32,000 bases of DNA, taken from Alphaproteobacteria bacterium. GTDB taxonomy: Bacteria; Pseudomonadota; Alphaproteobacteria; UBA9219; RGZA01. The stretch covers positions 599 to 32,598 of the forward strand of contig RGZA01000003.1 of NCBI GenBank assembly GCA_010031785.1. The letters run 5' to 3'. Below are positions 6,713 to 30,054 of this stretch, piece after piece (position 1 is the first letter of the stretch; every line of letters starts with the position of its first letter). The notes under the pieces are model-generated. The model made no database searches. It was not told where the DNA came from and worked only from the letters and a program-made list of their open reading frames with translations. The position numbers were made by a program, and so were the translations under genes.

Positions 6713-7093
6713 TTACTTCTTAGTAGCGATTTTCTTGCCAGCGATTGGTTTAGCCGGGCCCTTACGTGTACGCGCATTGGTGTGCGTACGTTGACCACGA
6801 ACCGGCAATCCTTTGCGATGACGTAAACCGCGGTAGCAGCCAAGATCCATAAGGCGTTTGATGTTCATCGCGATATCGCGGCGAAGATCGCCTTCTACTT
6901 TGAATTGACCATCGATGAATTCGCGAATTTTCAAAACTTCGTTATCGGTCAATTGATTGACGCGCTTTGCATCAGGAATAGCCAAGGCATCGCAAATCTG
7001 GCGCGCACGCAAAGGGCCTACACCAAAAATGTAACGTAACGAAATCCATACCGGTTTATTTGTCGGTATATTTACACCAGCAATACGAGCCAC
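6713..7093 (-). CDS. rpsM: 30S ribosomal protein S13
   Basis: Start re-placed at GTG 7093 (GGGGAG upstream), giving the canonical (M)[37 protein letters not shown] follows. Confidence 0.9.
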
Positions 7094-7246
7094 GCGCTTC
7101 TCCCCCAGAGAATAAAAAAACAAAAACTCAAAAACAAAAAAAGCCGCACCAAATCCGCCCTTTAATCAGGCACATCCAGTCGGTTGCGCTTTTTTGTAAA
7201 ACTATATTCCTAAGAAACACGTCTTCCTCAGGAAATTGTGAGGCGG

Positions 7247-7429: not shown

Positions 7430-7762
7430 ATGAATCCCGCAATGGTCAGCTCAGGACTTGAAATAGCCGGGTATAAGATTGTCAAACATGTCGGCATTGT
7501 TCGCGGCATCGTGGTGCGCTCGCGCTCAATCGTTGGTAATTTTTTTGCAGGGCTGCAAACCATTTTGGGTGGCAACATTACCATCTATACCAATTTGTGC
7601 GAACGCACCCGCACCGATGCATATGCGCTCATGTGCAAGCATGCAGAAAAGAATGGCGCGAATGCCATCATCTCCATGCGATATGATGCAACGGAACTCG
7701 ATCGCGGCGTAACCGAAGTTTTATGTTATGGTACAGCCGTTATTGTTGAGGAGATAAAATAA
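7430..7762 (+). CDS. ybjQ: YbjQ/UPF0145 family protein (putative heavy-metal-binding domain)
   Basis: 110 aa. VRGIVVRSRSIVGNFFAGLQTILGGNITIYTNLCERTRTDAYALMCKHAEKNGANAIISMRYD...GTAV is typical of the YbjQ family. Confidence 0.8.
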   Translation: MNPAMVSSGLEIAGYKIVKHVGIVRGIVVRSRSIVGNFFAGLQTILGGNITIYTNLCERTRTDAYALMCKHAEKNGANAIISMRYDATELDRGVTEVLCYGTAVIVEEIK

Positions 7763-7971
7763 TGAAAGCACTTACTATTTTCTGCTTCATTTTATTTCTG
7801 GCAGGCGTTGCGGCATTTCTTGGGCAGATGTGGTTCAGCCTGTGGAGCTCTGGCATTTTTCTTAAAATCATCATTACAGATGTCGCCCTGTTTGCGATTG
7901 CCTTTGTGCTGGCATTCCTGATTAAGGAAAACAAGGAAAGCAAAAACATCCATAATGGCGATTTGCAGTAA
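7762..7971 (+). CDS. small hypothetical membrane protein (2 TM helices)
   Basis: 69 aa. The ATGA start overlaps the ybjQ stop. Two hydrophobic helices (ALTIFCFILFLAGVAAFL, IIITDVALFAIAFVLAFLI). No recognisable family. Confidence 0.45.
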   Translation: MKALTIFCFILFLAGVAAFLGQMWFSLWSSGIFLKIIITDVALFAIAFVLAFLIKENKESKNIHNGDLQ

Positions 7972-7996: not shown

Positions 7997-9685
7997 TTAT
8001 GCCGTTAAGTGTATTTCAGGCAGGCGAATGATCAGTTGCGTGCCCTTATGCATTTCTGAGCGCAATTCGGCTTGGCCATTTAAACGCAAAACCGCCTGAT
8101 ACACCGCCGACATGCCTGCCCCGCGCCCTGACAGCATGCTGACTTCATCGCGCGTTGATACATCATGCGTTAGCAGATGCTGAATAATATGCTGGTCATC
8201 ATCAAAGCGCCAGTTCCCTTCCGGATCTGCGCTGGCTAGTTTTTGACGCACACGGTTCGGGTCAATCCCTGCGCCATCATCGGCGATGGTAATTTCAATC
8301 CACTTGCGTCCATTATCGATGATGGATTTCACAGAAATGGTTACCTGGCCATACGCATCCTTGCCCTTGGCCATACGCGTAATGGGCGATTCAATTCCAT
8401 GATCAATAATGTTGTGCACCACATGGGTGAATGACATCAGCAAATATTGTAACGGCTTGGCAGGCATGCGTAAGGCTTCACCTTTAAAGATAATCGGCTT
8501 GATTTTCTTTTCGAGTTTTTCCGCAATGGGCTGCATCTGGCGATCAAGCGATTTGAGCAAGGTAAAGAGCGGCACAGATAACAGGTTGCTCTGATAGGCA
8601 TAATAAATATGCGGTGCGACGTTATTCTGCTTAAGTAATTCACCAAACTGATAGAGCGATTCTTCATCCACTTCCACAATGCCCTGAATGCGCCCATCTT
8701 CGTCACCTAGGATAGGGCGTAAGGCCTTTTGAATACGGCCAAATTCCAGTTGAACATCGGCGCGGTGTTGCGCAAGCTTTTCCTGAACAGCGTCGGTAAT
8801 AACATGCACATCGCCAAGCTGTACATCGCGCAAAGTGCTTTCGAGTTCATGAAGCTTCTCACCAAGTGCTTCCATCTTGAAATGCATCGCTGCACCTTTG
8901 ATGGTATGAACGTCGCGGAAAAATTCTGCGCTGGCCAGGCTTGAATCCACACGCACCAGCCGGTCAATGATCAGTTTTATCTCGCTCAGGATCAGCATGA
9001 AGCTTTGCTTCTCTGCAAAGATCGAGCAGACCATCGCAACAAACTGGCGTTCACTATCCGCGCGCTTTTGCGCTTCTTTTTCTTGGGTTTTGTCGGTTGC
9101 AATTAACACAATACACAGCAGATGACCCTGCTTGTCGCGTACCGGACGGTAGGTAAGTTCTGCAATACGGCCATTATCCTGCACGAGTTGATCAGGAAGG
9201 AAGCGCGCCGCATCTTCAAAACTAAGCGCATGATCGGGCATAAACAAAATGCCCAGCCATTCATAAAAATCGGCATGATCGGCTGACGCAATTTTCAATA
9301 AATCGGTGATATTTTTTCCGGCAATGTCATCACAGTGCAAGAGCAGACGAGAAGCCTGCGAATAGGCCGGACCACAAATCCCCTTACTATCAAAGGTAAG
9401 AAACCCCTGCCCAAGGCTATTCATAAGCACATCACTAAGACGCGCATGCTCAAGCACAATTCTGTGCGCACGCACATTCATACGATAGAGATAGGCAATG
9501 CCAATGCACACCACCAGCGTAATTACCAATGCCACTTCACCAGAACGCATCGGATTAAAGCCATAGGCTGGCAACAACAATCCTACCATCAACAGCAATG
9601 CCATGAGTGACAGGCCGCCAAGTGTCGTATGGATAATTTCTACTTGCTTCAGAGTTTGCTGTGCAGAAGGTTTTGCAGTGCTCAT
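7997..9685 (-). CDS. membrane-anchored PAS / HPt / CheA-type HATPase histidine kinase (no CheW-like P5 domain)
   Basis: 562 aa. Two N-terminal TM helices and a PAS-like segment (LGQGFLTFDSKG...LLCIVLIATDKT). HPt motif FFRDVHTIKGAA. CheA-type N box HVVHNIIDHGIE, G1 DDGAGID and G2 GRGAGM. The protein ends right after the ATPase domain. Confidence 0.8.
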   Translation of the reverse strand: MSTAKPSAQQTLKQVEIIHTTLGGLSLMALLLMVGLLLPAYGFNPMRSGEVALVITLVVCIGIAYLYRMNVRAHRIVLEHARLSDVLMNSLGQGFLTFDSKGICGPAYSQASRLLLHCDDIAGKNITDLLKIASADHADFYEWLGILFMPDHALSFEDAARFLPDQLVQDNGRIAELTYRPVRDKQGHLLCIVLIATDKTQEKEAQKRADSERQFVAMVCSIFAEKQSFMLILSEIKLIIDRLVRVDSSLASAEFFRDVHTIKGAAMHFKMEALGEKLHELESTLRDVQLGDVHVITDAVQEKLAQHRADVQLEFGRIQKALRPILGDEDGRIQGIVEVDEESLYQFGELLKQNNVAPHIYYAYQSNLLSVPLFTLLKSLDRQMQPIAEKLEKKIKPIIFKGEALRMPAKPLQYLLMSFTHVVHNIIDHGIESPITRMAKGKDAYGQVTISVKSIIDNGRKWIEITIADDGAGIDPNRVRQKLASADPEGNWRFDDDQHIIQHLLTHDVSTRDEVSMLSGRGAGMSAVYQAVLRLNGQAELRSEMHKGTQLIIRLPEIHLTA

Positions 9686-10197
9686 TTCATGCTCCCATGA
9701 AGCGCGACATGAATTTGAAAGACACTGCCTTCAAGTTCAAAATGCATCAGCATGTAGCGGCCTTCATGCATCTGTGAAATAAAATGCCCGCCGCCCAATA
9801 TGACACTTGGCATACCAAAGCGCAGATGATGGCCGCGCTGGTTCAGCGCTGTCTTGATCTGCCCGAAAATCATATTGGTGATTTCGCCCACGGCATCCAT
9901 CGCCACATCCTGGGTGATTTCAATGCCATCGCCAAGCAAGCGTGGCAGAATTTTATTCATTACGGTGATATTGAAACAGGCGGTTAGCGTGCCTTCAAGT
10001 TTTTCCTGTATAAAGCCAACCACGCCGTATACATCGCCGGTTAAGCTTACCGATCCCTCGCCAATGACATAGCGGCCAGCTTTGACAGGAACATCAAAAG
10101 TTTTTCCAAAGGCCTCGCTGACTGCAAAGGTAAAATCCTGCGCAAGCTGATCACCCAGTGAAAGGGCAAGCGGTTTTGATGCAAGGGCGGCTGTCAT
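9682..10197 (-). CDS. CheX/CheC-family CheY-P phosphatase-like protein
   Basis: 171 aa. The CheC/CheX/FliY signature D-x3-E-x2-N-x21-P is present (DAVGEITNMIFGQIKTALNQRGHHLRFGMP). The stop overlaps the kinase start (ATGA). Confidence 0.7.
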   Translation of the reverse strand: MTAALASKPLALSLGDQLAQDFTFAVSEAFGKTFDVPVKAGRYVIGEGSVSLTGDVYGVVGFIQEKLEGTLTACFNITVMNKILPRLLGDGIEITQDVAMDAVGEITNMIFGQIKTALNQRGHHLRFGMPSVILGGGHFISQMHEGRYMLMHFELEGSVFQIHVALHGSMK

Positions 10198-10204
10198 ATA
10201 AGGC

Positions 10205-10630
10205 CTATGTCTTTGCCATGCGGCGGTTTTTCAGCCAATCCATTACTTCACGGATTTTCTTGTTAAGCTCAATCGGCGCAATCGGCTTCAGGATATAGGA
10301 CGTTGCGCCCATCTTGATGGCCTTCATGATATTTTGTTTTTCAGATTCCGCAGTGAACATGACAATCGCGGTGTTCTGGTACTGCGGTTTGGTGCGGATA
10401 TAGGCCAGCACATCAATGCCCGACATTTGCGGCATATTCCAATCAAGGAAAATAATGTCATAGAGATTTTTATTGGCGAGCGACGTAGTGATCGCCTCGA
10501 CCGCTTCAGTGCCATCATTGGCAAGATCTATATTCTGAAACCCTGAATCAACAAGGGTGCGTTTTACAAATTGCCGGATGAGAAAATGATCATCCGCAAT
10601 TAATATTTTTGACTGTAGATCAAGCGACAC
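10205..10630 (-). CDS. single-domain CheY-like response regulator
   Basis: 141 aa with a GTG start (GAGGA upstream). Acidic pocket ILIADD, phospho-acceptor context IIFLDWNMPQMSG, then MFTAE and YILKP. No output domain. Confidence 0.85.
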   Translation of the reverse strand: MSLDLQSKILIADDHFLIRQFVKRTLVDSGFQNIDLANDGTEAVEAITTSLANKNLYDIIFLDWNMPQMSGIDVLAYIRTKPQYQNTAIVMFTAESEKQNIMKAIKMGATSYILKPIAPIELNKKIREVMDWLKNRRMAKT

Positions 10631-10783
10631 GGCAAACCATCCTCAACAGTAAATGATAGAAAATACATATAATTGAGCCATACTCTTGTGCCATGAAAGG
10701 ATTGACATGAGGTTAAGGATGGCTTTGTATGAAAAACTTATTAATACTCAATCGTTTCTGCACTCTAATGAACCCGTGAAATC

Positions 10784-12013
10784 ATGCTTCAAGACTCCAG
10801 CAAAACATTAAGTCCATTTGTGATCATGACAATCCTGGTCACAACGCTTGGCTATTTTGTGGATGTGTATGACATATTTGTTTTCTCCGCCAGTCGAATG
10901 ACATCGCTGAAAGAAATTGGTGTTCCACCTGAGAAAATTATGGATAGCGGCATCTTCCTTCTCAACTTGCAAATGGTTGGCATGCTGATCGGTGGAGTAG
11001 TGTTTGGAATGGCAGGCGATAAATTGGGTCGCTCACGTGTCATGATGATTTCTATTTTGACCTACGCGCTTTCTACGCTTGCCAATGCTTTTGTTACAAA
11101 TATAGAAACATTTGCTGTGCTGCGTTTTCTTTCCGGCTTTGGTTTATCCGGAGAACTTGGGCTTGGCGCAACATTGATCTCGGAAATTTTATCCAAGGAA
11201 AAACGTGGCCTTGGCGTAGGCATCATGGTGTCCTTTGGCGTAACAGGCGCAGTAGTTGCAGGGATCATGGCGCAACTCTTTGATTGGCGCATATGCTATA
11301 TTATTGGCGGCGTGATGGGATTACTTCTGCTTGTTTTTCGCATGAAGATGATTGAATCCGGCATATTCAAAAACATCCCTGAACACGCAGAAAAAGGCAA
11401 TATTATGCTGCTTTTTAAAAGCCGCGAACGCTTCATGCGCTTCTTCTGGTGCGTGACCCTTGGGCTGCCTACATGGTTCGTGGTTGGAATTCTTATGACC
11501 TTTGCGCCAGAGATTTTGCCGAGCGCAAACCTTCCTGTTATCCCAACGGCTGTGTTGATGGTCTATTGCTATGGGGTAATGCCCCTTGGTGATCTCTCAA
11601 GCATTATACTGTGCCAGCTTTTCAAAAAACGTCAGCCAGTGATTGTATTGTTTATCATCCTGTCCATTATCGGGCCCCTTGCGATGTTATATCTGCCACG
11701 TCCCTTAAGCGAACTGGATGTAAAACTTCTTTTCTCCTTCACATGTTTTGGCGCAGGTGCGTGGGTGTTGATGTGCATGGTCTCGGCGGAAAGTTTTGGA
11801 ACGAACTTGCGCGCAACAGTTACAACCACAGTTCCTAATTTTGCCAGAGGATCTGTTATTCTGATGACGATGTTGTTGAGTGCATTAAAAGCACACATGC
11901 CCTTGCTCGATGCCGTGATGATTGTGGGCGCGGTTGCGTTTATTCTGCCGCTGATTGCGCTAACGCAATTGCCGGAAACCTTCGGCAGATCGCTTGAATA
12001 TCTTGAAAAGTAA
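10784..12013 (+). CDS. MFS transporter
   Basis: 409 aa with about 12 hydrophobic segments. MFS motif A-like GDKLGRSRVMM between TM2 and TM3. LSGFGLSGELG and SKEKRGLG blocks. Confidence 0.8.
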   Translation: MLQDSSKTLSPFVIMTILVTTLGYFVDVYDIFVFSASRMTSLKEIGVPPEKIMDSGIFLLNLQMVGMLIGGVVFGMAGDKLGRSRVMMISILTYALSTLANAFVTNIETFAVLRFLSGFGLSGELGLGATLISEILSKEKRGLGVGIMVSFGVTGAVVAGIMAQLFDWRICYIIGGVMGLLLLVFRMKMIESGIFKNIPEHAEKGNIMLLFKSRERFMRFFWCVTLGLPTWFVVGILMTFAPEILPSANLPVIPTAVLMVYCYGVMPLGDLSSIILCQLFKKRQPVIVLFIILSIIGPLAMLYLPRPLSELDVKLLFSFTCFGAGAWVLMCMVSAESFGTNLRATVTTTVPNFARGSVILMTMLLSALKAHMPLLDAVMIVGAVAFILPLIALTQLPETFGRSLEYLEK

Positions 12014-28562: not shown

Positions 28563-29279
28563 TTAATTTTCCTTAACTGCGCCAAAGGCAGCAAAACAGC
28601 TGTTTTTATGCAAAACCTCGACATTACAAAACCCAACTTTGCGCAATAAATCCAGTTGAAACATCAAAGAACGAGGAGAATCTTCCTGTGCGATATAATC
28701 GAATACCTTATCACGATATGCCTCGTCTTTCAGATTAGAAAGATAAACACCATAACGCTTCCACATCATCGCTTGCACACGTGCATCCGAATGCTCGATT
28801 AAATCTGAAATCCAGATGGAGCCCTGTTGCTTAAGCGACGCATGCAGTTTAGTAAACACCGCTTCCCATTCGGCTGTTTCGCGCAAATGGTGCAAAACCG
28901 CTGACGCACATATGATATCAAATTGGGATTCCCCAATGTTTAGTTCGCGCACATCCGCTTGAATAGCAGTCACCTTGCCCGATGTTACAAGACTAACGCG
29001 CTCTACCGCACGTTCCAACATGGGCGCACTAAGGTCTATGAGCGTTACATTCAGATTTGGCAAACGTTCCAATATTTTAAGGGAATAATTGCCAGCTCCA
29101 CAGCCAACATCAAGCAACGACGTTGCTGTGGCAGGAGCCAAGCTTGAGGCTGCTTCAGCGATCAACGCAAGCGATAACGGTGCATCAATCGTAGCCGATT
29201 GTCCCGTTTCAAGATTTGAAAAACGCTCAACATCAGCATCAAAGCGTTCACGAATTTGCGCTACGGTGGATTTATTCAT
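28563..29279 (-). CDS. class I SAM-dependent methyltransferase
   Basis: 238 aa. Motif I LLDVGCGAGNYS, post-I acidic LIDLS, and a later block FDIICASAVLHHL. The overall layout resembles CmoA-like small-molecule/tRNA methyltransferases, but the substrate cannot be inferred. Confidence 0.75.
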   Translation of the reverse strand: MNKSTVAQIRERFDADVERFSNLETGQSATIDAPLSLALIAEAASSLAPATATSLLDVGCGAGNYSLKILERLPNLNVTLIDLSAPMLERAVERVSLVTSGKVTAIQADVRELNIGESQFDIICASAVLHHLRETAEWEAVFTKLHASLKQQGSIWISDLIEHSDARVQAMMWKRYGVYLSNLKDEAYRDKVFDYIAQEDSPRSLMFQLDLLRKVGFCNVEVLHKNSCFAAFGAVKEN

Positions 29280-29368: not shown

Positions 29369-29767
29369 TCAACTTTTTTGCCAATCAATCTTACCGCCCA
29401 TTTTTTTGATTTGCTGCTCAATTTCTGGGGTAATTTGTTTTAGAACCTCCGGCCATGGAAGACGGCTCCACCCCGATGTAGCAAGAAAAATAATATCACC
29501 CTGAACATGAAACAGAATCGTAGTTTCAGTTCCCAAAACCTGCATATGCGAAAGCACGGCAGAAAAATGCACAGGGTCAATCGTACCTAGACGATGCGGC
29601 TTTTCTAGTTTTTTAATAAAGGCATCCACTTTTTCAAACCATTTGCGTGCAAACACTTCCCCTTCGGTTTGCTCAAGATAATCCATAGTTTTATAAATAC
29701 TCATATCAAACTCGGTCGTTCGCCGAATACGATACTGCTTATGCAAAATAGGAACGCTGCGCTTCAC
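29369..29767 (-). CDS. RelE/ParE-superfamily toxin-like protein with a ~30-aa C-terminal extension
   Basis: 132 aa with a 4-nt overlap onto the upstream antitoxin gene. The N-terminal helical hairpin pattern YRIRRTTEFDMSIYKTMDYLEQ...FARKWFEKVDAFIKKLEKPHRLG and the beta segment TTILFHVQGDIIFLATSG resemble ParE/RelE folds. The usual catalytic/basic C-terminal residues are not evident. Confidence 0.5.
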   Translation of the reverse strand: MKRSVPILHKQYRIRRTTEFDMSIYKTMDYLEQTEGEVFARKWFEKVDAFIKKLEKPHRLGTIDPVHFSAVLSHMQVLGTETTILFHVQGDIIFLATSGWSRLPWPEVLKQITPEIEQQIKKMGGKIDWQKS

Positions 29768-30054
29768 TTTTTGCGGCGCTCACTGCGGCGCTTGGCAATA
29801 TGCTGCATGCTTTCTTGCAATAACCGCTCCCCATCATATTCACGGTGATGGCCATTCACGACATCCGCCATGCCGCGCCTAACGCTGGCTGATAATTCTG
29901 ATTGACGCGCATTTTCCATCGCTTCAAAATCATGTGCAGACACATAATAACCCACAGGCCTGCCGTGACTGGTTACTTCAATCGGCTCTCGCTGTACTTC
30001 CTGATTGCGGCGACCAAAATTATTGACAAATTCCGTGGCTGTAAGGGTAATCAT
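29764..30054 (-). CDS. Phd/YefM-family type II antitoxin
   Basis: 96 aa. MITLTATEFVNNFGRRNQEVQREPIEVTSHGRPVGYYVSAHDFEAME is a typical Phd/YefM N-terminal domain. The C-terminus is basic and probably disordered. Confidence 0.75.
   Translation of the reverse strand: MITLTATEFVNNFGRRNQEVQREPIEVTSHGRPVGYYVSAHDFEAMENARQSELSASVRRGMADVVNGHHREYDGERLLQESMQHIAKRRSERRKK

Follow-up and report, generated by a model that had tools for sequence, protein, structure and literature searches.

Class III histidine kinases (HKIII) are reportedly built of sensor domains on a CheA-derived core without a dimerisation domain, a definition said to go back to Adebali et al. 2017 (J Bacteriol). The partners given in that work are reportedly a single-domain response regulator and CheX, often together with an unorthodox soluble chemoreceptor, and a role in type IV pilus motility is said to have been proposed there. 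We know of no biochemically characterised member of the class, and a literature search for Dichelobacter TwmS/TwmR as a studied example returned unrelated acronyms only. Here we analyse a cassette of three minus-strand genes for a CheY-like receiver, a CheX-family protein and a membrane-anchored kinase with a CheA-type core, located at positions 7997 to 10630 of a 32,000-nucleotide stretch of an alphaproteobacterial genome (GenBank assembly GCA_010031785.1, contig RGZA01000003.1, positions 599 to 32,598; the window hereafter). We assign the cassette to the HKIII-type modules, that is, to CheA-derived phosphorelays without chemoreceptors or CheW, with a probability of about 0.78. As far as could be established, it represents a minimal, membrane-anchored alphaproteobacterial subfamily of an already described and abundant class; its specific features are the site among the ribosomal genes, shared by the whole lineage, and the evidence for a PAS domain as part of the class core.

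Most features reported for HKIII recur at the locus. A CheA-type catalytic domain and an Hpt domain with a conserved histidine lie on the same polypeptide, which ends without P5 and carries no recognisable H-kinase_dim domain; an input module of its own, consisting of a hairpin of two transmembrane (TM) helices and a PAS domain, precedes them; and a stand-alone receiver and CheX are encoded next to the kinase. HKIII can occur without an adjacent chemoreceptor, and no open reading frame (ORF) with an MCP-signalling domain, as expected for the optional soluble chemoreceptor, was found in the window. The subfamily differs from HKIII in that its variable N-terminus is reduced to the two-helix hairpin, in the retention of a short P3-like remnant, and in its origin from uncultured Alphaproteobacteria, where it keeps a constant location among the ribosomal genes.

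In the kinases CitA and WalK/YycG of class I, the cytoplasmic PAS domain is a transmission and dimerisation module situated directly before the kinase core. Like them, the kinase of the window has a membrane anchor and then a cytoplasmic PAS domain that immediately precedes a phosphorylatable helical domain, but CitA and WalK/YycG use DHp (HisKA) and a class I catalytic domain, whereas here the PAS domain would feed Hpt and a CheA-type P4. With canonical CheA it shares the HTxKG motif of Hpt, the N, G1 and G2 boxes, the P4 fold and a CheY-like substrate. Canonical CheA, however, contains P5/CheW and P2, both of which are missing here, and P3 is a remnant; the kinase has instead its own membrane anchor and PAS domain and belongs to a separate clade of the P4 tree. 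The four-domain set of canonical CheA (Hpt, dimerisation domain, HATPase_c and CheW) is therefore incomplete in this protein, P5 being absent.

Proteins of the CheC/CheX/FliY family dephosphorylate single-domain CheY. The CheX of the cassette is similar to that of the Borrelia and Thermotoga CheX-CheY3 pair with respect to the CheX fold, the motif D/S-x3-E-x2-N-x~22-P and the single-domain CheY partner. In those bacteria CheX serves a canonical CheA/MCP pathway, whereas here its gene is tied to that of a receptor-free kinase. Co-occurrence of HKIII with type IV pilus genes is mentioned, in paraphrase, in a passage of PMC6501615.

The three genes of the cassette

The genes and the segments of the kinase are the following (aa, amino acids; AF2, AlphaFold2 model; HMM, hidden Markov model).

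10205..10630 (-): single-domain CheY-like response regulator, 141 aa, GTG start
9682..10197 (-): CheX-family CheY-P phosphatase (predicted activity), 171 aa
7997..9685 (-): probable class III-type sensor histidine kinase, CheA-derived and P5-less, 562 aa
9476..9628 (-): two TM helices forming a membrane-anchor hairpin, kinase aa 20-70 (hydropathy scan, AF2 helices)
9077..9454 (-): PAS-fold domain directly N-terminal of Hpt, kinase aa 78-203 (AF2, Foldseek, family HMM)
8696..9076 (-): Hpt (P1-like) helical bundle, kinase aa 204-330 (Pfam Hpt, hhalign)
8579..8695 (-): short helical linker, possible remnant of the CheA P3 dimerisation hairpin, kinase aa 331-369 (weak hhalign match, Foldseek)
8012..8578 (-): CheA-type ATP-binding catalytic domain (P4), kinase aa 370-558 (PDB, NCBIfam, Foldseek)

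As read from the DNA, the TAG stop codon of cheY is separated by seven nucleotides (gccttat) from the ATG of cheX, and the stop of cheX overlaps the kinase start in the sequence ATGA. Each of the genes has hundreds of conserved homologues and is therefore a real gene rather than a chance ORF.

The CheA-type core of the kinase is documented by several independent comparisons. Pfam detected HATPase_c (6.9e-13, aa 419-557) and Hpt (3e-6, aa 251-307), and no match to CheW, H-kinase_dim or HisKA. P4 matched the P4 domains of CheA in the PDB (1i58/6s1k) with an E value of ~1e-23, and the NCBIfam CheA models, which were the top matches, covered only aa 371-556. When the family was aligned by hhalign with 22 canonical CheAs, the alignment ran continuously from Hpt through P4 (probability 100%, E 3.8e-41), with the Hpt region meeting the CheA P1 motif HTIKG, and stopped exactly at the border between P4 and P5. 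The protein itself ends four residues past P4, so that P5 is absent. The AF2 model of the full kinase has a predicted local distance difference test value (pLDDT) of 80.7; Foldseek aligned it to isolated P4 structures with a TM-score of ~0.8, and ~250 of its columns to the P3P4 fragment of Thermotoga maritima CheA (4xiv). In the P3 region, the hhalign match is weak and gapped (EVDEESLYxFxxLL versus RVDxxxLDxLMNLVGEL in CheA).

The catalytic residues are conserved throughout. The predicted phospho-histidine H260 (nt 8906-8908) lies within DVHTIKGAA, the family motif being HT(I/L)K(G/A)A, and the N box HVVHNIIDHGIE occupies aa 421-432 (H421-N425-DHGIE), followed by the G1 box DDGAG at 469-473 and the G2 box SGRGAG at 519-524. 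Invariant positions in an alignment of 27 family members are H260, T261 and K263, the N-box residues H421/N425/DHGIE, G1 DDGxG and G2 SGxGxG; H260, T261 and the catalytic residues are also invariant in a broader alignment of 32 sequences.

The N-terminal part was assigned mainly by structure prediction. A hydropathy scan placed TM helices at residues ~20-43 and ~48-70 with a loop of ~5 residues between them, which leaves essentially no periplasmic domain; H19, P39, G62 and N70 of this region are invariant or nearly so in the close family. The following domain scored weakly with Pfam PAS_9/PAS_4 (E 0.017, under the gathering score), and a comparison of its sequence profile with the PDB yielded spurious P450 matches only. 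Modelled alone, however, it reached a pLDDT of 83.9, and Foldseek ranked CitA and WalK/YycG highest, matching their cytoplasmic PAS domains at target-normalised TM-scores of ~0.63-0.69. It contains the motif NSLGQGF and the invariant residues C104, W143 and H152.

Among the partner proteins, the receiver matched Pfam Response_reg with 2e-28. Its best NCBIfam model is CheY with 87.9 bits, which is under the 189-bit cut-off. Aligned to the E. coli CheY sequence, it is 33% identical, and all active-site residues are aligned: D13, D14, D63, T93, Y112 and K115 are equivalent to D12/D13/D57/T87/Y106/K109 of CheY, with D63 (nt 10442-10444) as the phospho-acceptor. A DWNMP motif is present, and I101 (= I95) and K125 (= K119) are retained as well. 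The 171-aa protein was recognised by Pfam as CheX (1.6e-14) and CheC (8e-6). It carries the CheX motif D101-x3-E105-x2-N108-x21-P130 (nt 9874-9897 and 9808-9810) and matches the solved CheX structures 3hm4 (1.3e-15), 6vpw and 1squ/1xko; its homologues are named "chemotaxis protein CheX" by both NCBI and JGI.

A preliminary description, made from the letters of the window, had proposed this layout, and all its structural particulars are borne out. The coordinates, the 7-nt gap and the ATGA overlap are exactly as claimed, and the quoted N, G1 and G2 motifs stand at the given places. A stand-alone CheY-like receiver, a CheX/CheC-family protein, two TM helices (on which hydropathy and the AF2 helices agree), an HPt domain, a CheA-type core and a C-terminus lacking a CheW-like P5 had likewise been predicted and were all recovered.

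Relatives of the kinase and linkage of the three genes

A homologue search returned ~50 full-length relatives of the kinase with 36-73% identity in alphaproteobacterial metagenome-assembled genomes (MAGs), together with more distant ones. None of the full-length or distant relatives found in this search contained a CheW domain, and canonical CheAs matched the kinase through P4 only. In a neighbour-joining tree of P4, 32 P5-less kinases were set apart from 44 canonical CheAs, the exact bipartition being recovered in 176/200 bootstraps. The 32 P5-less proteins end 0-15 aa after P4, with the exception of one that has CheX fused to its C-terminus, whereas the median tail after P4 in the canonical CheAs is 287 residues. 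Such a fusion was seen in P0072 / L083:6405-9131 (and also in P0244), where CheX occupies aa 783-880 of the kinase and a receiver gene follows. Two very long relatives, P0241 (4858 aa) and P0354 (1950 aa), end in a CheA-type P4 and were matched by the profile in 33 and 15 separate stretches, respectively; presumably they hold long repeat arrays of PAS-like or Hpt-like modules.

The sensors of the distant P5-less relatives are diverse and comprise PAS, HAMP, 7TMR-DISM, CHASE5, dCache, an NMT1-type binding protein and Y_Y_Y. With HMMs derived from the close family, the PAS-like domain was detected directly before Hpt in all P5-less members and in none of the canonical CheAs, which makes it a signature of the class core; the P3-like linker (aa 331-369) was not detected by these HMMs outside the close family. 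The PAS-like sensor of the preliminary description thus stands as far as the fold is concerned, but it is a core domain of the whole class and not a private sensor of this kinase.

A profile search over 1.84 billion cluster representatives retrieved a top 150 that all scored >470 bits and nearly all ended at P4; at E ≤ 1e-30 there were 31,768 representatives, canonical CheAs included. On the basis of this search, the P5-less class is very common, and the design of the kinase is no oddity but fits a described class (HKIII, by its reported properties). A survey of 13,673 CheAs defined CheA by HATPase_c plus CheW and found CheW in 100% (PMC10542144), so that P5-less kinases fall outside CheA by construction. 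Database names differ. JGI calls the P5-less relatives P0010, P0013, P0014, P0019 and others "two-component system chemotaxis sensor kinase CheA", while NCBI uses "ATP-binding protein" or "Hpt domain-containing protein" for such kinases. A P5-less gene named CheA is no argument for the presence of a chemotaxis pathway, and the JGI name could inflate counts of such pathways.

The linkage of the genes was assessed in a locus scan restricted to one genome per species, which gave 78 loci, all from MAGs. The core family was defined as the 56 loci with a kinase at least 35% identical to that of the window, and 49 of them had enough upstream sequence. In all of these (49/49), cheX and cheY are located immediately upstream of the kinase. 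The triad also occurs in a Herbaspirillum sp. (in the order dCache-kinase, CheX, receiver) and in five other distant contexts, among them loci with NMT1, CHASE5 and HAMP sensors and a 3.5-Mb genome in which a binding protein, the kinase, CheX and the receiver are followed by a hybrid kinase and a receiver-GGDEF protein. At L087, an unannotated 184-aa gene occupies the position of CheX. The three genes of the cassette are a unit and their linkage is obligate. The proposal that the kinase is packaged with its own substrate and phosphatase is therefore the best reading of the 49/49 co-occurrence and of the triads in distant relatives.

Some loci contain an additional gene next to the kinase. At L052:8583-9719, L074:8556-9704 and L076:8559-9710, the gene directly preceding the kinase codes for a stand-alone FIST_N+FIST_C sensor protein of ~380 aa, and the same placement is seen at L068:8532-9707 and L054:316-1500. 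The FIST gene sits between cheX and the kinase in L052, L068, L074 and L076; no cheX was detected on the short contig of L054. In L053, an sCache_2 protein takes the FIST position. The MAGs with FIST loci are labelled Rickettsiales, Bdellovibrionaceae, Pseudobdellovibrionaceae, in one case Pseudomonadota and in one case Alphaproteobacteria. The FIST and sCache_2 genes suggest that separately encoded sensors exist for this kinase class. Given that the contigs of L011 (the cheY-cheX-kinase type) and L054 (the FIST-associated type) belong to one MAG, Go_SlAct_bin_533, two or more paralogous systems of this class can be present in the same genome.

Signal flow and output

The assignment to HKIII-type modules has its direct basis in the domain identities, the conserved catalytic residues, the absence of P5/CheW, the three-gene linkage and the class-wide distribution. 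From these we propose the following course of signalling. The two-helix hairpin would anchor the kinase in the membrane with essentially no periplasmic part, and a membrane or cytoplasmic signal may be sensed via the hairpin, the PAS fold or both. The signal would pass through the PAS domain to the Hpt-P4 core, where P4 is predicted to spend ATP on the phosphorylation of H260 of Hpt. From H260, the phosphoryl group would be transferred to D63 of the stand-alone CheY-like regulator, and CheX would speed the dephosphorylation of the regulator, resulting in a fast and resettable signal. Since the regulator has no output domain, its phosphorylated form must act by binding another protein, for which a motility machine, either type IV pili or the flagellar switch, would be the likeliest candidate. 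Pilus or flagellar motility is thus the most likely output.

A CheA-type core may accordingly be driven without chemoreceptors or CheW, and to judge from the sequences collected here, this solution appears to be widespread. The subfamily of the window is close to its simplest version, with a hairpin, PAS, Hpt and P4 encoded together with a translationally coupled substrate and phosphatase, and is a good candidate for learning how a CheA core is switched on without P5 and a receptor array. For a class without a known biochemically characterised member, any tractable example would be useful.

Several points weigh against this assignment. HKIII are said to be without a dimerisation domain, and the hairpin at aa 331-369 of the kinase aligns weakly to P3 (hhalign, 4xiv). 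No pilus or flagellar gene was found near any examined locus, that is, in the 32-kb window or in flanks of ±10 kb. The phosphoryl flow, the nature of the signal and the output are properties that we infer for the cassette from its sequence. In two distant loci (L085 and L086), the triad precedes enzymes of cyclic di-GMP (c-di-GMP) metabolism. Six sister-clade loci have MCP genes at a distance of 4-9 kb, past rplQ and on the other strand, so that some sister-clade genomes probably also possess a canonical chemotaxis system that might engage in cross-talk with the cassette. Finally, the label HKIII itself is based on class properties as reported and on the second-hand paraphrase in a passage of PMC6501615.

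The sister-clade MCP-signalling genes are located as follows.

L007:18119-19819, opposite strand: MCP-signalling gene
L008:15996-18173, opposite strand: MCP-signalling gene
L023:13789-17453, opposite strand: MCP-signalling gene
L027:19976-21616, opposite strand: MCP-signalling gene
L048:18554-20143, opposite strand: MCP-signalling gene
L077:8026-11390, opposite strand: MCP-signalling gene

Their position beyond the rpoA-rplQ end is a recurrent synteny of these six loci, and none is present in the window. A further gene of this kind, encoding a NIT-MCPsignal-CZB protein, lies two genes upstream of the triad in L085.

The earlier statement that neither cheW nor an MCP gene is adjacent agrees with our searches: neither the window nor any of 88 loci contains an ORF recognised by an HMM of the CheA P5/CheW domain, and the MCP query found nothing in the window. 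A self-contained, receptor-independent relay, as first proposed, is the best reading at the locus and is reinforced by the invariable cheY-cheX-kinase linkage. Because of the MCP genes near sister-clade loci, "self-contained" holds for the locus and is not extended to the genome.

A different output with the same relay is the alternative that survives best. The regulator might bind the flagellar switch (FliM/FliN) rather than act as a pilus regulator, and the kinase would then provide a receptor-free input for a kind of energy- or membrane-state taxis. We consider this possible, if doubtful. CheY is the best curated model for the regulator, in which DWNMP, T93, Y112 (= Y106), I101 (= I95) and K125 (= K119) are kept; CheX is the classical phosphatase of flagellar chemotaxis; and Micavibrio, the label of some related MAGs, is flagellated according to the RNA-seq paper on strain ARL-13. 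The CheY score, however, is far under the equivalog cut-off (87.9 versus 189 bits), and the kept residues are generic to CheY-like receivers, pilus regulators included. Moreover, HKIII are reportedly, and in the paraphrase found in PMC6501615, tied to type IV pili and not to flagella.

A second-messenger or phosphate-sink role seems unlikely. In this reading, the targets modulated by the regulator and CheX would be c-di-GMP enzymes or a canonical Che system, and no motility machine would be bound directly. It would draw on L085:10723-13883 and L086:11405-16721, where the triad is followed by genes of the same orientation for c-di-GMP enzymes and a hybrid kinase (GGDEF, REC-GGDEF and dCache-PAS-HD-GYP). 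These genes hint at a second-messenger output in the subgroup of L085 and L086, but neither the window nor the core family shows genes of this sort linked to the cassette.

Position in the ribosomal cluster, receptor coupling and neighbouring genes

The gene order in the window is secY-adk, MFS(+), cheY-cheX-kinase(-), a small ORF and YbjQ(+), and rpsM-rpsK-rpoA-rplQ; the rest of the window consists of ribosomal and housekeeping genes. The features directly flanking the cassette are these (MFS, major facilitator superfamily).

10631..10783 (no strand): AT-rich intergenic region of 153 bp between cheY and the divergent MFS transporter gene
10784-12013 (+): MFS transporter gene, flanking the cassette on the adk side
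7430-7971 (+): YbjQ-family gene and 69-aa hydrophobic ORF, flanking the cassette on the rpsM side

In the core family, the cassette and the ribosomal genes are on the same strand. Downstream of the cassette, rpsM follows within 1.3 kb in 30/47 core-family loci, and adk lies upstream in 22/44. Where both flanks are available (n=35), adk and rpsM together were found in 15 loci, rpsM only in 11, adk only in 3 and neither in 6, so that adk and/or rpsM adjoin the cassette in 29/35. The position is kept down to ~35% kinase identity, at which rpsM is ~72% identical, and the gaps between the kinase and rpsM are mostly 190-490 bp. The synteny is an old one within a lineage of uncultured, partly Micavibrio-like Alphaproteobacteria: some of the MAGs with the cassette are labelled Micavibrio or "Bdellovibrionales", the latter because NCBI still files Micavibrio under Bdellovibrionales. 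A recent horizontal insertion of the cassette was considered and rejected in view of its unremarkable GC content and the lineage-wide synteny. Most probably, the position has been retained passively at an operon junction of the extremely stable ribosomal cluster.

The cassette had been described as embedded in the ribosomal cluster. This is confirmed as a conserved synteny of the whole lineage (29/35), but in the window the cassette forms its own transcription unit, given that opposite-strand genes separate it from adk and rpsM. From the gene arrangement, we infer that the region 10631..10783 holds the cassette's own promoter in this genome. Sigma-70 promoters and terminators around the cassette were sought with shuffled sequences as baseline; the sigma-70 consensus scan found no site in 10631..10783, and promoter-like sites around the cassette were fewer than in the shuffles.

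The location between spc (secY-adk) and alpha (rpsM-rpsK-rpoA) might be taken to mean that the cassette is co-expressed with ribosomal genes and that its signalling is tied to the growth state or acts on translation, which could serve, for example, the attack and growth phases of Micavibrio-like predators. The conservation of the position down to ~35% kinase identity, the linkage in 29 of the 35 loci, the shared strand and the short gaps fit such a coupling. According to the ARL-13 RNA-seq paper, the cultured species Micavibrio aeruginosavorus possesses canonical che clusters in addition to flagella and type IV pili, and expresses ribosomal and motility genes in opposite phases. Nevertheless, we regard the coupling as quite unlikely: the opposite-strand MFS gene on one side and the YbjQ gene with its small ORF on the other make co-transcription impossible in the window, the cassette is outside the cluster entirely in 6/35 loci, distant class members are found in unrelated contexts, and passive retention accounts for the pattern, ribosomal clusters being so stable. 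Just as improbable in our view is the more specific idea that read-through from secY-adk into cheY-cheX-kinase-rpsM ties the dosage of a motility module to ribosome synthesis, with the class-wide PAS domain replacing P5 as the control input; if true, it would couple the switch between a motile searching phase and a growth phase to the growth state.

The notion of a degenerate canonical chemotaxis system, in which a truncated CheA uses CheW and MCPs encoded elsewhere in the genome, can appeal to the CheA-like P4 and to the MCP genes 4-9 kb away in six sister-clade loci, but it is hardly credible, since the coupling domain P5 is missing in all members and present in 100% of the surveyed CheAs, the proteins have their own membrane anchor or sensor modules, the P5-less kinases branch apart from canonical CheAs in the P4 tree, no CheW-like ORF occurs in any of the 88 loci, and the MCP genes in the vicinity lie past rplQ and on the other strand.

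Some minor observations concern the neighbouring genes. Within the ribosomal cluster, opposite-strand genes have been inserted to either side of the cassette. Of these, the MFS gene is shared by the closest relatives alone (L001-L003, L050). On the other side, the start of the 69-aa hydrophobic ORF overlaps the stop of the YbjQ-family gene. For rpsM at 6713-7123 (-), the mechanical ORF list starts at a TTG codon and yields 136 aa, compared with 126 aa in the predictions of gene callers for identical contigs; an internal codon is probably the true start. At 29369-30054 (-), an ORF for a Phd/YefM-type antitoxin (96 aa) has a 4-nt overlap with a 132-aa ORF without a Pfam match, and the two are a probable type II toxin-antitoxin pair. 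This candidate pair adjoins a gene for a SAM-methyltransferase (28563-29279) and lies a short way upstream of the str-S10-spc-alpha cluster, at its rpsL end.

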